Below are positions 53,393 to 58,050 of a DNA stretch of 64,000 nucleotides, piece after piece. The notes beneath the pieces are model-generated. The model saw only the letters and a program-made list of their open reading frames with translations, had not been told where the DNA came from and did not search any database. The DNA comes from Candidatus Latescibacterota bacterium (GTDB lineage: Bacteria > Latescibacterota > UBA2968), in NCBI GenBank assembly GCA_965207885.1, contig OZ242311.1:4256001-4320000 (forward strand), given 5' to 3'. Positions within the stretch are counted from its first letter, which is position 1. Every line of letters begins with the position of its first letter. The translations under genes and the position numbers were made by a program.

Positions 53393-53830
53393 TCATTCAA
53401 CCAACTTCTCACCGTCGAAAATCATTTTATCCTTTTCGTAAATCGCACCCGTTTCTTCATCCAACTCGTACTTCATCAACTGCCCCATAGACATGTGGTT
53501 AAACACCTCTTTGGGATCGCCGTATTTTTCCAGCAATTTTTCAATTGGGCCTTCAAACTCATAGGTTCGGCGTTTGGGCCGTTCGCGCGCTCTGCGCTCG
53601 GATTCTTCCTTGCTCAAAATGGGCAATCGCTCGGCGGTGGGGCCCAATCGACTCGCGTATTCCTGCCGTCTGCGGTACTGATCGTGCCGCTTTTCAACTT
53701 CGTCCTTGTCCTCTTCTCGCTCCTTGTGACTGAGCAAATCTCCTTCCCGCTCTGACCACTTTTCCCGCTCGCGCTCGCGCACATCATCGCGGCCCACTTT
53801 TCGCATAATATCTCGCAGTGAATCACTCAT
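53393..53830 (-). CDS. Hypothetical highly charged protein (145 aa)
   Basis: ORF with SD GGAGG; R/E-rich. Confidence 0.7.
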   Translation of the reverse strand: MSDSLRDIMRKVGRDDVREREREKWSEREGDLLSHKEREEDKDEVEKRHDQYRRRQEYASRLGPTAERLPILSKEESERRARERPKRRTYEFEGPIEKLLEKYGDPKEVFNHMSMGQLMKYELDEETGAIYEKDKMIFDGEKLVE

Positions 53831-53998
53831 CTCTCAAACCCTCCAAAGCCAGACAAATTTAAGACTATCGAGTAACCAAAAAATAACGCACCACATCCCG
53901 CTTGTCAAAAGGTAAATCCCACTTTTAAAACATCGGGGTTGACGCGGACCCTCTTTGCATACATATTGCAGCCATACACACCCTGCGAAAGGAAATAC

Positions 53999-54784
53999 AT
54001 GTCCAACTTGGAGCAACTTATCAACATCATGGCGCAATTGAGAGGGCCTGCGGGCTGCCCGTGGGACAAAGAGCAAACGCACCAGAGTCTGAAACCCTAT
54101 CTCATCGAAGAAGCCTATGAACTCCTCGAGGCGATTGACTGCAATGACGATGGCGAAATCAAAGAAGAACTGGGCGACCTCTTGCTACAAGTCGTCTTTC
54201 ACGCGCAAATCGCCAGTGAAGAAAACCGATTTACCATAGACGATGTAGCCGAAGCCATCGCCGACAAACTCATCCGTCGTCATCCGCATGTTTTTGGCGA
54301 CACACAAGCCGACACACCCGACGAAGTCATCAAAAATTGGGAAGCCATCAAAGCCGAAGAAAAACCCAACAAAAAAGCCTCCCTGCTCGACGGAGTGCCA
54401 CAACACTTGCCGGCACTATTGAAAGCGCGCAGGCTCCAGGAAAAAGCTGCACGGGTGGGATTTGAATGGGAACACATAGCGGATGTGGCTCAAAAAGTAA
54501 GGGAAGAAACAGAAGAATTGATGCACGCACGAGAAACCGGCGCAACAGAAAAAATTCAAGAAGAATTTGGTGACTTGCTATTTGCCCTGGTCAATCTCGC
54601 TCGATTTCTCCAAATATGCCCTGAAGAAGCACTCATACAAACCAACAGAAAATTTCAATCGCGCTTCCAGTACATCGAAACCGAACTGTGCAAGCAGGGC
54701 AAAACACCTGATGACGCTACGCTTGAAGAAATGGACGCGCTGTGGGAAGCCGCAAAAAAAGAGAATCAGCCCCAAAAATCGTAG
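53999..54784 (+). CDS. mazG: Nucleoside triphosphate pyrophosphohydrolase
   Basis: GCPWDKEQT, EELGDLLLQVVFH and EEFGDLLF motifs. Confidence 0.95.
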   Translation: MSNLEQLINIMAQLRGPAGCPWDKEQTHQSLKPYLIEEAYELLEAIDCNDDGEIKEELGDLLLQVVFHAQIASEENRFTIDDVAEAIADKLIRRHPHVFGDTQADTPDEVIKNWEAIKAEEKPNKKASLLDGVPQHLPALLKARRLQEKAARVGFEWEHIADVAQKVREETEELMHARETGATEKIQEEFGDLLFALVNLARFLQICPEEALIQTNRKFQSRFQYIETELCKQGKTPDDATLEEMDALWEAAKKENQPQKS

Positions 54785-55278
54785 TGTGCAGACAATTCTA
54801 AAACGGGAATAGGAGCCGATTCCCAATCGTCAATCCAGCAAATAATGCTATCACATGCCATATAATCGAGATTTTCGCGCTCGAAATCACTGCTGCGCAA
54901 CACGGCGTGCGCTCGAACCGGCAATTCATTACTCGACAAAATATAATTGGGAAAAGCCTCCTGGGATTTGAGCACCTCAAATCCCAACTTGTCGTAAACC
55001 CGAATAAACAACTCGCGGACATTGGTCGCATTTCGCACAGCCGGATACGTCAAAAGTAGTTCTTGCTTAACAGGAGCCAGTTGTTTTTCAATAACATCAA
55101 GCGTACTCTGAGGAACCGTAACCGACTTTGCATTTTTGCGCTCCAATTCGGCTTCGACCCGCTTGAGAGCCAATTCTGCGACCTCTTTGGAATCGCTAAT
55201 TGACTTCCGCACGCGCTTGCCCTCTTCATCGTAATACCCGATCCACCACTTCTTTCCCCGCTGATAAAGCCACGCCAT
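54766..55278 (-). CDS. Integrase arm-type DNA-binding domain fused to a degenerate PD-(D/E)XK-like domain
   Basis: N-terminal LYQRGKKWWIGYYDEEGKRVRKS...KEVAELAL; C-terminal LGFEVLKSQEAFPN...S.DF...CDSIICWIDDW...PIPVLEL. Confidence 0.6.
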   Translation of the reverse strand: MAWLYQRGKKWWIGYYDEEGKRVRKSISDSKEVAELALKRVEAELERKNAKSVTVPQSTLDVIEKQLAPVKQELLLTYPAVRNATNVRELFIRVYDKLGFEVLKSQEAFPNYILSSNELPVRAHAVLRSSDFERENLDYMACDSIICWIDDWESAPIPVLELSAHYDFWG

Positions 55279-55531
55279 AGTTGTGCTCCCGCTGCAAAAC
55301 GTCAGTGTGTCTTATAGATAGCCACAAAAAATGAGAAAAACAATTTACTGCTGATATTATACAATATATTGTATATCGCTCTCAAAACAAAGCACAATAT
55401 ATAAAACAAAATGTGGCTAATAGCCACAAAACGTCCATCAAATAATAATCTAAGCCACACTTTTACGCAACAAAAAGAACACACCCCAGCATCAAAAATG
55501 CTGGAGTGTTCTTATAAGCTGACGATATCCC

Positions 55532-55559
55532 TTGACATTTCTTTAGACAATTGTACAAT
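55532..55559 (+). promoter_or_regulatory. Promoter with palindromic operator
   Basis: TTGACA, 16 bp, TACAAT; palindrome ATTGTACAAT over the -10. Confidence 0.5.
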
Positions 55560-55620
55560 CGAACACTTAGACGGGCTGCAGACGCACTCGGTATCAACCT
55601 CGTTAATTTGGAGGGGTAAG

Positions 55621-55866
55621 ATGGAAGTATATACGTACTCGGAAGCCAGACAAAAACTCTCCAGCGTACTCGACAAAGCTGAGTCAGCGGGTAAGGTCCT
55701 TATACGGAGAAAAGACGGTAGGACTTATGCCCTGATGCCAGAACGTCCCACCGTGTCACCACTGGATGTTCCTTCAATTGACGCAGACATCTCTACGCAG
55801 GACGTCGTCACACTTGTCAGGCAACAGAGGGGTAGAATAAGAGGGTGGCGTCAACGCGCCCAATAA
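55621..55866 (+). CDS. Phd/YefM-family antitoxin (no adjacent toxin)
   Basis: MEVYTYSEARQKLSSVLDKA...VLIRRKDG. Confidence 0.8.
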   Translation: MEVYTYSEARQKLSSVLDKAESAGKVLIRRKDGRTYALMPERPTVSPLDVPSIDADISTQDVVTLVRQQRGRIRGWRQRAQ

Positions 55867-55960
55867 CGCACGTTTGAATTTAGCCGCGATTCAGAACCTA
55901 AAGGGGAAAACACTTTCATTTTCCTATCAGGCATTTGCTACAGTTAAATTTTTTCTTTTG

Positions 55961-55984
55961 ATATATGTCATATTTGACATATAT
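55961..55984. promoter_or_regulatory. Palindromic operator of the HigBA-type TA operon
   Basis: ATATATGTCA-tatt-TGACATATAT, a perfect 10-bp inverted repeat just upstream of the toxin ATG. Confidence 0.7.
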
Positions 55985-55991
55985 TTCTTTT

Positions 55992-56327
55992 ATGAGTCCT
56001 CATGACAAACCTCTGGTATGGCTTCACGGACAAATCAAAACGCCTCCATTTTCTCCAGCAGCGAGAATTGAAGCAGGTTTTCTTCTGCGTAGTCTCCAAG
56101 CTGGTGAACTGCTTTCAATGCCCCAGGCCAGACCAATGCCCTCTATTGGAAGGCATTGTTACGAATTGAGAGTTCGAGATCAGAATGAGACCTGGCGAAT
56201 CATCTATCGCATTGATTCGGATGCCATCGTCATAGCAGAAGTTTTCACAAAAAGGACTCGTCAGACGCCCAAAAGAATCATTGATATTTGTAAAAGACGG
56301 CTACAACACTACGATTCGATAGGATGA
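55992..56327 (+). CDS. RelE/ParE (HigB/Gp49-like) toxin
   Basis: KPLVWLHG..KTPPFS, CYELRV, WRIIYR and FTKRTRQTP motifs. Confidence 0.88.
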   Translation: MSPHDKPLVWLHGQIKTPPFSPAARIEAGFLLRSLQAGELLSMPQARPMPSIGRHCYELRVRDQNETWRIIYRIDSDAIVIAEVFTKRTRQTPKRIIDICKRRLQHYDSIG

Positions 56328-56330
56328 CTC

Positions 56331-56645
56331 ATGAATACAAAAAAGAAAAAACTTCTCGAGGCTGCCGGATGGCGTGTGGGTTCAACAGACGATTTTCTGG
56401 ATCTGACCGACGAAGAAGCCGCTTACATTGATCTCAAAATCACGTTGAGCAAGAAAGTGCGTCAATGCCGTGAGCGAGAAAATTTGACCCAAACACAATT
56501 GGCCAAATATCTCAAATCCAGTCAATCTCGTGTTGCCAAAATCGAAGCGGGCGATCCCTCTGTTTCTGTAGATCTATTAATTCGATCCCTCTTCGCGCTT
56601 GGGGTCTCCAAATCCGAACTCGCCGAAATGCTCGTATCGCAATAG
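56331..56645 (+). CDS. XRE-family HTH antitoxin (HigA-like)
   Basis: LTQTQLAKYLKSSQSRVAKIEAGD. Confidence 0.88.
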   Translation: MNTKKKKLLEAAGWRVGSTDDFLDLTDEEAAYIDLKITLSKKVRQCRERENLTQTQLAKYLKSSQSRVAKIEAGDPSVSVDLLIRSLFALGVSKSELAEMLVSQ

Positions 56646-57110: not shown

Positions 57111-58047
57111 GGTAGTGTCTGAAAAGTCGTAAAGTATGTATTTTAGTTGCAGCATACGCCCTAAACCAAGGAGTATGATATGCAACGGAGATATGAACTG
57201 CGCGACGAGGCTTGGCATCTGATCCAAGACCTGTTCCCACCGCCGAAGAAGATGGGTCGTCCCCGTCGGGATGATCGTACATTATTCAACGGGATCTTCT
57301 GGATATTGTGTTCAGGTGCAGCTTGGCGCGACCTGCCAGAACGATATGGTCCTTGGCAGACAGCCTTTGACCGATTCTGCAAATGGAAACAGGATGGCAC
57401 CTTTGATCGCATTGTAGAAAAGCTACATCTCAAATTGGGTGAAGATGGTCTTTTAGATTATGCGACCTGGATGATGGATGCAACCCATATTCGAGCCACA
57501 CAAGCCGCGGCAGGAGCGAAAAAAAAAGGGCAAAAAGGGTGAAGAAGAGCCCCCAGATCACGCTTTAGGACGCTCTCGTGGCGGTTTGACCACGAAAATC
57601 CATCTTCTTTGCGATGCAGTCGGGCATCCTTTAGCAGTGGATCTTCTCCCTGGTAACCAGTCAGAATCCACACAGGCTGAAAGGCTACTGTCAAAGGTAT
57701 GCATACCCACCAAACGAGGGCGTCCAAGAAACCGACCCAAGTATCTGGTAGCTGATAAATCTTATGATGTCTCACGCATCAGAGTCTATCTACGCAAACG
57801 GGGTATCAAGGCTGCTATCCCAAACAAGGCGATTCCCAAAGGCAGAAAACGGCGTAAGAGAGGACCACGGCCTAAGTGTGATAAAAGATTATATGCCAAA
57901 CGCAATATCGTGGAGCGTCTCTTTGGTTGGCTTAAACACTGCCGACGGATTGTGACCCGATTTGAAAAAAAGGCGACTCATTTTCTCACTATGGTCAAGC
58001 TGGCCTGTATCAGACAACTCTTCAAAGCTTACTTTTCAGACACTACC
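57111..58047 (+). mobile_element. IS5-family insertion sequence (IS427-like group), 937 bp
   Basis: Perfect 17-bp TIRs GGTAGTGTCTGAAAAGT / ACTTTTCAGACACTACC; TA target duplication at 57109-10 and 58048-49. Confidence 0.95.
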
Positions 58048-58050
58048 TAA
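57180..58050 (+). CDS. IS5-family DDE transposase in two frames
   Basis: orfA 57180-57542 (GAAWRDLPERYGPWQT, MMDAT); orfB GRSRGGLTTKIH, ADKSYD, RNIVERLF; A9 run at about 57519-57527 at the junction (probable programmed frameshift). Confidence 0.9.

Follow-up and report, generated by a model that had tools for sequence, protein, structure and literature searches.

A chromosomal protein of Latescibacterota built from an integrase-type arm domain and a nuclease fold with replaced catalytic residues, and the conserved site array upstream of its gene

Results

Organization and conservation of the gene

We analysed a stretch of 64,000 nucleotides from the genome of a Candidatus Latescibacterota bacterium (assembly GCA_965207885.1, contig OZ242311.1, positions 4,256,001 to 4,320,000; this whole stretch is hereafter called the window), and describe here a minus-strand gene for a protein of 170 amino acids (aa) together with the control region upstream of it (Table 1). 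The product is a lineage-restricted chromosomal protein built from two recruited domains, an N-terminal one related by sequence to the arm-binding domains of tyrosine integrases and a C-terminal one predicted to have the PD-(D/E)XK restriction endonuclease fold, with its catalytic residues replaced. A conserved, operator-like array of TGTGG(C/A)(T/C) sites is present at the gene's own promoter, as indicated by its uniqueness in the genome, the clustering of the sites, the comparison of 25 loci and a 63-nt block of extreme conservation. Taken together these features point to a DNA-binding protein that may regulate its own gene.

Table 1. Features of the two-domain protein gene, its control region and its convergent neighbour (window positions)
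Feature	Position	Strand	Basis and remarks
mazG, convergent neighbour	53939..54784	+	Pfam MazG 4.3e-41
Two-domain protein gene, stop codon included	54766..55278	-	list of open reading frames; 170 aa, ATG start
Residues 79-167, PD-(D/E)XK-fold domain (predicted), catalytic residues replaced	54778..55044	-	alignment, model, structure matches
Residues 51-78, variable linker	55045..55128	-	predicted local distance difference test (pLDDT) <50; poorly conserved columns; non-synonymous to synonymous substitution ratio (dN/dS) 0.11-0.55
Residues 1-50, Arm-type (integrase N-terminal) DNA-binding domain (by homology)	55129..55278	-	Pfam, integrase alignment, AlphaFold2
Ribosome-binding site GGGAG	55286..55290	-	read from the sequence; 8 nt 5' of ATG
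Degenerate inverted copy of the distal site, AGTGTGTCTTA versus AGTGTGGCTTA	55304..55314	+	inverted repeat I2, 91% complementary
Repeat ATAGCCACAAAA	55318-29 and 55420-31		repeat scan
Proximal TGTGGCTA site	55319..55329	-	repeat scan; 48 nt 5' of ATG, 3' of the predicted -10
Candidate sigma-70-like promoter (TTGAGA, 18 nt, TATAAT)	55356..55385	-	consensus scan, 11/12 matches; the phylum's real promoter type may differ
Perfect 18-bp AT-rich palindrome	55358-75		inverted repeat I5
Ultra-conserved 63-nt block	55408..55470	-	distal site (55452-59), invariant 24-nt spacer, palindrome TGTGGCTAATAGCCACA (55412-28)
Inverted pair TGTGGCTA/TAGCCACA	55412-19 and 55421-28		repeat scan
AGCCACA (= TGTGGCT)	55453-59		repeat scan
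13-bp-stem hairpin with T-run, upstream locus boundary	55481..55509	-	terminator-like scan

A word-indexed search returned 46 homologues, most of them of 167-172 aa, down to 55% identity and all unnamed. When one genome per species was scanned, 24 loci were found at 98-54% identity, 23 labelled Latescibacterota or Latescibacteria and one labelled 'Gemmatimonas sp.', and these together with the window copy form the set of 25 loci compared below. The gene is a single copy in its own genome. It was found in 29 of the 168 genomes of a phylum survey (16 of the 52 of high quality), in 19 of the 20 other genomes of its own genus, yet in 6 of the 49 genera of the phylum, which makes it a core gene of one genus with a patchy distribution elsewhere. 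Nei-Gojobori dN/dS against the window copy ranged from 0.047 to 0.126 (16 pairs with dS<1.5; coding dS within the genus comparison, 0.19-0.53), with values of at most 0.16 for the N domain, at most 0.13 for the C domain and 0.11-0.55 for the linker, indicating that both halves are under purifying selection. An earlier reading, made from the letters of the window without database searches (the sequence-only reading), had described a frame overlapping the 3' end of mazG, and had set a conserved fusion with conserved mazG synteny against a strain-specific chimera. The overlap is indeed there (19 nt), the fusion is carried by 24 other species genomes at the low dN/dS given above, and a convergent mazG homologue accompanies it at 23 of the 24 loci, the remaining one (L024) stopping too early to judge.

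The N-terminal domain

The Pfam model Arm-DNA-bind_4 (PF14657) matched the window protein with E=0.018 (15.1 bits) and, when the members of the family were scanned individually, 20 of 26 at E<=0.1, with 6.7e-5 as the best value. In an exhaustive search of 1.84 billion representative sequences, residues 1-52 were matched (E 3.2e-5) by P0183, a 333-aa protein that is a true tyrosine integrase by its Phage_integrase (5.5e-32) and SAM-like domains. The first 51 residues of P0183 align with this part of the window protein (pairwise E 7e-14; 39% identity). The AlphaFold2 model of this part contains three strands and a helix (E2-7, E10-16, E22-28 and H31-51; pLDDT about 82). Since the evidence of these alignments supports it, we accept the homology of residues 1-50 to the arm-site-binding domain of tyrosine integrases, in line with the proposal of the sequence-only reading for the first 50 or so residues. 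That reading had also noticed that no catalytic integrase domain follows, and this holds: Pfam gave no Phage_integrase (PF00589) match on the window protein, the chain ends at 170 aa, and residues 79-167 are assigned to another fold. A word-based search found no longer proteins sharing residues 1-55.

The C-terminal domain and its parent family

The exhaustive search returned 312 representatives at E<=0.001, nearly all of which cover residues about 80-165 alone. From the best 150 of these 312 matches we aligned 133 domain stretches, leaving out matches with E>1e-9, stretches short of residue 150, N-terminal-only matches and the repetitive P0071, and obtained the consensus NE..VRE.F...LG..I..SQ..FPD...RAExE..SS.F..H.HD...CDLIICW.HDW...P.PVLEL, which agrees with the pattern proposed in the sequence-only reading (here in the form FPD...ExE...CD.I[IV]CW..DW). 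The relatives carry E84 (118/133), D111 (126/133), E124 (128/133), E126 (124/133), H135 (121/133) and H137 (122/133), and the window protein carries at the same positions A84, N111, H124, V126, E135 and L137. The catalytic motif of the relatives, E..FPD..ExE..HxH, is lost throughout the window protein and its clade, and the acidic catalytic residues in particular, D, E and E in the relatives, are absent (N111, H124 and V126), as the sequence-only reading had proposed.

The AlphaFold2 model computed from an alignment of 103 rows has a C domain with pLDDT>90 in the order alpha-beta-beta-beta-alpha-beta (H84-94, E100-105, E112-116, E119-128, H129-134 and E144-149); an earlier model from 26 close relatives had given a pLDDT of about 50 for this domain. 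In a structure search against representatives, 26 of 50 rows among the matches listed fall on the C domain, most of them titled nucleases. NucS was the best (Z 6.0, root-mean-square deviation 3.1 A over 81 residues), followed by 3dnx (5.6), AF1548 (5.4) and the fdxN-excision (XisH-type) factor 2okf (5.2), and the matches further include VRR_NUC, MspJI, LlaBIII, BsmI, I-Ssp6803I, Hjc, SdaI, FokI, SfsA and Can1/Can2. Because this list is consistent and the relatives bear the PD...ExE motif, we consider sound the assignment of the C-terminal 90 residues, on alignment and model, to the restriction-endonuclease (PD-(D/E)XK) fold and to a large unnamed family. The full-length model had no Foldseek match in PDB at E<=0.001, sequence and profile searches found no PDB relatives, and no Pfam, NCBIfam or PADLOC model covers the C domain, lenient Pfam scans included. 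The nearest clusters in the ESM Atlas are unnamed hypothetical proteins, and one distant relative (P0174) gave a faint match to NF052465, 'type II restriction endonuclease' (E 0.0016).

The relatives that retain the catalytic motif are fused to helix-turn-helix (HTH), winged HTH, Omega-repressor, HNH_repeat and RPA domains, and at two loci (L056, 1884-2621; L076, 2530-3276) Mrr_N precedes the active family domain. Their neighbours, as seen from 63 of 112 open reading frames (ORFs) scanned in 21 of 25 metagenome loci, include Eco57I-type methylases (L053, L056), BrxC/D with a DEAD helicase (L049), SIR2_2 (L047) and Mrr_cat (L054). From the Mrr_N fusions and the methylase and defence neighbours, the parent family looks like a restriction nuclease domain of Mrr-like type that the domain libraries scanned do not model.

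Could the window protein still be an enzyme, its active site rebuilt around His111/His124 and the Arm domain directing it, as a nuclease or nickase, to specific sites? Members of its own family have N or, in most cases, H at position 111; H124 is invariant among the 26 aligned members, as are E89, R88, K104 and D131; and the active relatives are likewise fused to DNA-binding domains (HTH, Omega repressor, HNH_repeat and Mrr_N). Against this, the own genus has Asn instead of His at 111, five or six residues conserved in more than 90% of the active relatives are all replaced together, and a unique cluster of recognition sites at its own promoter would be self-destructive for a nuclease lacking a methylase partner. 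We therefore regard an altered rather than dead active site as improbable.

The control region

The repeats and the perfect 18-bp palindrome that the sequence-only reading had listed upstream of the gene are found where it had placed them, and the conservation of the AGCCAC repeats in relatives, which it had put forward as a check, is supported by the locus comparison below. On the scale of the window, 4 of the 12 AGCCACA matches are crowded into 140 nt (the expectation for all 64 kb being 7.2). On the scale of the genome (6,228,721 bases), the 17-bp palindrome TGTGGCTAATAGCCACA occurs once, and nowhere but upstream of this gene do 3 of the 242 TGTGGCYA sites share a span of 200 nt. Over the 25 loci the density of TGTGG[ACT]N is 13.2/kb in the 300 nt 5' of the ATG versus 1.8/kb in the rest.

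The sites recur in a fixed layout, which starts with a forward distal site and, 31 nt downstream, an inverted pair with halves 10 nt apart, continues over 75-122 nt with an AT-rich promoter region, and ends with a forward proximal site, which in most relatives is at -29 to -49 from the ATG. The inverted pair is present in 21 of the 25 loci and the distal site lies exactly 31 nt upstream of it in 18. This layout is kept at 54-70% protein identity, where other intergenic DNA is unalignable, and five more metagenome loci (L032-L034, L037 and L038) have the same sites and spacing. Within the genus (13 species), 54 of the 63 columns of the ultra-conserved block are invariant versus 72 of 129 in the remaining upstream region, TAAGACACAC is near-invariant, and GG(G/A)G is retained at the ribosome-binding site. 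The predicted promoter lies between the palindrome TGTGGCTAATAGCCACA and the proximal site. The 18-bp AT-rich palindrome, which overlaps the predicted -10, has no other genomic match with fewer than 4 mismatches; it is conserved within the genus only and stands outside the family-wide site set.

The palindromes might instead be RNA or terminator elements. On the minus strand, TGTGGCTATTAGCCACA with TTTTGTTTTA after it does score as terminator-like in a scan, and an RNA-library contig of a relative stops within the palindrome, although assembly graphs often break at inverted repeats, which is an alternative cause of such a contig end. In divergent relatives, however, the T-run is lost and the flanks read TTTT...AAAA, the single sites are unpairable, and the stem halves diverge without compensation: the TGTGG core is invariant, and the halves show no co-variation of the kind expected for an RNA stem (TGTGGCC...ATCCACA in L021). 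Rfam gave no family on 54500-56000, the best being a chance microRNA match (E 0.86). An RNA or terminator role of these sequences is thus very unlikely.

Several further sequences of the region and the genome were recorded. The invariant spacer between the distal site and the palindrome (55431-55451, plus strand, CCATCAAATAATAATC) resembles, with two mismatches, WATCAANNNNTTR, which we take to be the IHF consensus. An ORF of 60 aa over the control region (55302..55484, minus strand) was rejected as a gene in view of species indels of 2, 9 and 20 nt. Elsewhere in the genome, four copies of TGTGGCGACTCACCACA or its reverse complement (at 305323, 631435, 2368714 and 2611157) probably lie inside a repeated gene or element, and at 1659868 the sequence TATACAAGATATTGTGGC contains, joined to a TGTGGC core, a stretch closely similar to one half of the AT-rich palindrome.

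Discussion

A proposed autoregulating DNA-binding protein

We favour, with a little better than even confidence, the interpretation that the gene encodes a chromosomal autoregulating DNA-binding protein, with the TGTGG sites read by the Arm domain and a scaffold provided by the dead nuclease domain. The Arm domain would recognise the invariant TGTGG core, and the nuclease domain, no longer cleaving, would act as an oligomerisation or scaffold module joining two or more chains. Protein bound to the palindrome and the distal site upstream, and to the proximal site downstream, would bracket the promoter, and this bracketing would set the gene's own expression, probably by repression via bridging or looping. 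That invariance extends over the entire 63-nt block, to the spacer as well as the sites, points to a higher-order complex rather than isolated sites. Two relatives (P0048 and P0055) carry two copies of the C domain in one chain, a hint that this domain pairs; a homodimer prediction for residues 77-170 scored 0.20 versus a mark of 0.42. Among the roles proposed in the sequence-only reading, that of an autoregulator is the one to which the conserved, gene-linked site array lends plausibility.

Several observations weigh against this interpretation. The N domain scores 15.1 bits versus the PF14657 gathering cut-off of 22.3, and stays below formal membership. Fold searches, from which the sequence-only reading had expected a restriction-endonuclease-like C half and an arm-domain or AP2-like N half, agreed for the C half, and for the N half gave weak and unspecific matches in which lambda Int and AP2 are tied with unrelated folds (PH-domain fragments Z 5.2, lambda Int DNA-binding domain Z 4.6, AP2 Z 4.1). 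Every structure match has Z<=6, which is middling by the standard of the tool, and a Z<8 may mean a common arrangement. The histidine at 111 in most members and the invariant H124 are what an altered active site might look like. No genome-wide enrichment of TGTGGCTA was found (138 copies versus about 190 expected from length alone), and no regulon is visible genome-wide, there being no second site cluster. Two loci (L016 and L017, 78% identity) have an intact, constrained gene and have lost the sites, and in two others (L013 and L014) the palindrome is degenerate, so that autoregulation appears dispensable and the protein must also act beyond its own promoter. Finally, another regulator could own the TGTGG sites; in the neighbourhood comparison of the loci, no other DNA-binding gene was co-conserved beside them.

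Short relatives and a possible link to DNA damage

The closest relatives outside the family are short proteins of 139-174 aa (P0049, P0051, P0052, P0056, P0057 and P0202). They share the replaced residues (FPN/FPE, AH/AT) and start with strand-turn-strand-turn-strand-helix (MLYQRNNRVYIKTDGEDIEITKADL...), which is shorter than the Arm domain and aligns to its start. By these alignments the fusion predates the Latescibacterota form. Genes of such short dead relatives lie 0.8-1.5 kb from a divergent uvrC at three loci (L029, 1750-3400; L031, 1400-3350; L036, 1650-2260) and one gene from lexA in L026/L027; no conserved partner gene was found among their neighbours. At each of the three uvrC loci a GAAC-N4-GTTC-like box is found just 5' and just 3' of the short-relative gene. 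In the 3.7 kb of L031 there are 3 perfect boxes and 4 with one mismatch, versus about 0.06 and 1.4 expected, and in the 6.3 kb of L029 there are 1 perfect box and 7 with one mismatch. According to PMC3323433, GAAC-N4-GTTC is the LexA motif of Gram-positive bacteria. The short-form genes may be under SOS control; alternatively, the encoded proteins themselves may bind the boxes, in a parallel to the TGTGG array.

These loci raise the alternative that the window protein is a repair or DNA-damage factor with its targets elsewhere, be it DNA that is damaged or structured or a protein partner, the upstream sites belonging to another regulator. The short dead relatives have the same layout and lie near uvrC (three of four distinct loci) or lexA (L026), the boxes are abundant at L029 and L031, and L016 and L017 retain the gene without TGTGG sites. 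Yet the evidence from short relatives amounts to four loci, of which L029 and L031 may be close kin, and it is just as conceivable that the encoded protein itself binds the boxes. No GAAC-N4-GTTC box (<=1 mismatch) was found within 250 nt upstream of the gene at any of the 25 Latescibacterota loci, where the motif may not be that of the phylum, and an element common to the lexA and recA promoters (ACRAAYGTTCACTATA, described below) is absent upstream of the gene in the Latescibacterota loci. We hold this alternative to be unlikely, if worth keeping in mind. A broader scheme, in which the whole family, long Latescibacterota form and short forms alike, is an unrecognised class of DNA-damage-linked chromosomal factors, and an Arm-like sheet aims the dead nuclease fold at site clusters to form an intasome-like looped complex that acts as a switch and not as a recombinase or nuclease, is in our estimate a shade less likely again. 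The constant 31-nt spacing, the invariant spacer and the placement of sites on either side of the promoter would be features of such a complex.

With respect to the lineage's own LexA system, the lexA promoter sequence TTGACGGATGCACGAACGTTCACTATATT is near-invariant in 20 genomes of the genus (L081-L100; in the own genome, G000:C1, at about 4643990-4644043). The sequence ACRAAYGTTCACTATA, common to the lexA and recA promoters (recA at about 2477480-2477530), is a candidate LexA box of the lineage.

Genomic neighbourhood and mobile elements

The neighbours 5' of the conserved control region vary by species. They comprise an ornithine-cyclodeaminase-family gene (directly adjacent at 7 loci), a CarboxypepD_reg protein (6 loci), a DDE transposase and a DUF3368 gene, and in several species genes of insertion sequences (IS) or toxin-antitoxin systems; the window itself has a Phd antitoxin, a Gp49-like/HTH pair and an IS in this place. 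The variable DNA starts directly outside the conserved block, past a terminator or gene end: the hairpin at the upstream boundary is shared with L015, and other species end there with a different terminator or gene end. It looks like an ordinary insertion-prone intergenic spot. The gene had been placed by the sequence-only reading at the left border of an accessory region. This is partly right: the DNA upstream of the control region varies between species. The gene itself lies between housekeeping genes with its mazG synteny conserved.

The same reading had offered, as further roles, a recombination directionality factor or a decoy blocking integrase arm sites. In favour of these, the N domain derives from an integrase by the homology accepted above, the DNA upstream is variable with IS and toxin-antitoxin genes in several species, and the excision factor 2okf, of endonuclease fold, is among the structure matches. 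Neither role is upheld by the setting of the gene. No integrase was found in its neighbourhood; tblastn detected neither a further Arm domain of this kind nor another C-domain copy in the own genome; and the four tyrosine-recombinase matches of this genome, at 0.66, 1.70, 4.84 and 5.82 Mb, are 0.5-3.6 Mb away from the window (4.26-4.32 Mb). Across the genus and beyond, the single-copy gene has been passed on together with its sites, mazG and the housekeeping neighbours, and the sites stand at the gene's own promoter, not at the end of an element. Since there is neither an integrase partner nor a mobile-element context, the directionality factor and the decoy are unsupported, and we consider either extremely improbable.

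Other genes of the surroundings were noted in passing. Beside mazG in 23 of the 24 loci is a gene (window 53393-53830, minus strand) for a highly charged protein of 145 aa without a Pfam family. On the other side, a Phd/YefM-type antitoxin gene (55621-55866) has no obvious adjoining toxin; next come a Gp49-like (HigB-type) gene (55965-56327) and an HTH_3 gene (56331-56645). Two overlapping plus-strand ORFs (57180..57542 and 57478..58050) resemble, as read from their translations, a frameshift-split IS transposase.

Of the sampled words of window 53800-56000, a fraction of 0.3-0.5 is present in DNA and RNA libraries that carry a sponge or marine metagenome label, and the source organism seems to be sponge-associated. 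In RNA libraries, short low-depth contigs from two runs of one study cover the gene and extend to 55454, and a 3.2-kb contig of a 92%-identical relative, from two runs of another study, covers several genes on both strands. These contigs are not counted as proof of expression, because they show neither strand nor ends and DNA carry-over is possible.

Significance and comparison with known systems

As far as a literature search and the domain libraries show, the architecture of an Arm domain with a dead nuclease domain, the site array attached to it and the unmodelled nuclease family are undescribed, each domain being of a known kind; that search found no paper on an arm DNA-binding domain joined to an inactive restriction endonuclease fold. 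The protein offers a clean example of a DNA-binding module of mobile elements and a defence-type nuclease fold domesticated, as it appears, into a conserved chromosomal protein, with its likely operator attached, and the DNA specificity of an Arm domain thereby becomes directly testable outside recombination. It also draws attention to a large nuclease family (312 representative clusters, E<=0.001), seen in restriction and defence neighbourhoods, that lacks a model in current domain libraries, and the dead short forms near uvrC and lexA suggest a possible unrecognised player in the DNA-damage responses of uncultured bacteria.

With the arm domains of tyrosine integrases (Arm-DNA-bind_4; the N-domain of lambda Int and Tn916 Int, a fold related to AP2 domains), the window protein has in common a three-stranded sheet with a helix and several short repeated sites near the gene. 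Unlike tyrosine integrases, it has no core-binding or catalytic domain, stands outside a mobile element and has the sites at its own promoter. With the catalytic domains of Mrr/NucS-like PD-(D/E)XK enzymes it shares the order of the fold and the structure matches, and active relatives take the place of Mrr_cat behind Mrr_N (L056, L076). It differs from them in the family motif E..PD..ExE..HxH..CD.IICW.HDW, for which there is no library model, and of which the acidic and His positions are all replaced here.

Inactivated nuclease folds have been reused as scaffolds or DNA binders in ERCC1, in the nuclease-like domain of RecC and in the regulatory domain of Sau3AI. The window protein resembles these in that the predicted fold is kept and the catalytic residues are lost under strong purifying selection; in contrast to them its partner is an integrase arm domain, and the likeness drawn here is one of a kept fold and lost catalytic residues. 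The protein has no helix-turn-helix, unlike looping autorepressors, which serve here as a working analogy: as in those systems, a palindrome and single sites lie on both sides of the predicted promoter, at a fixed spacing of 31 nt.

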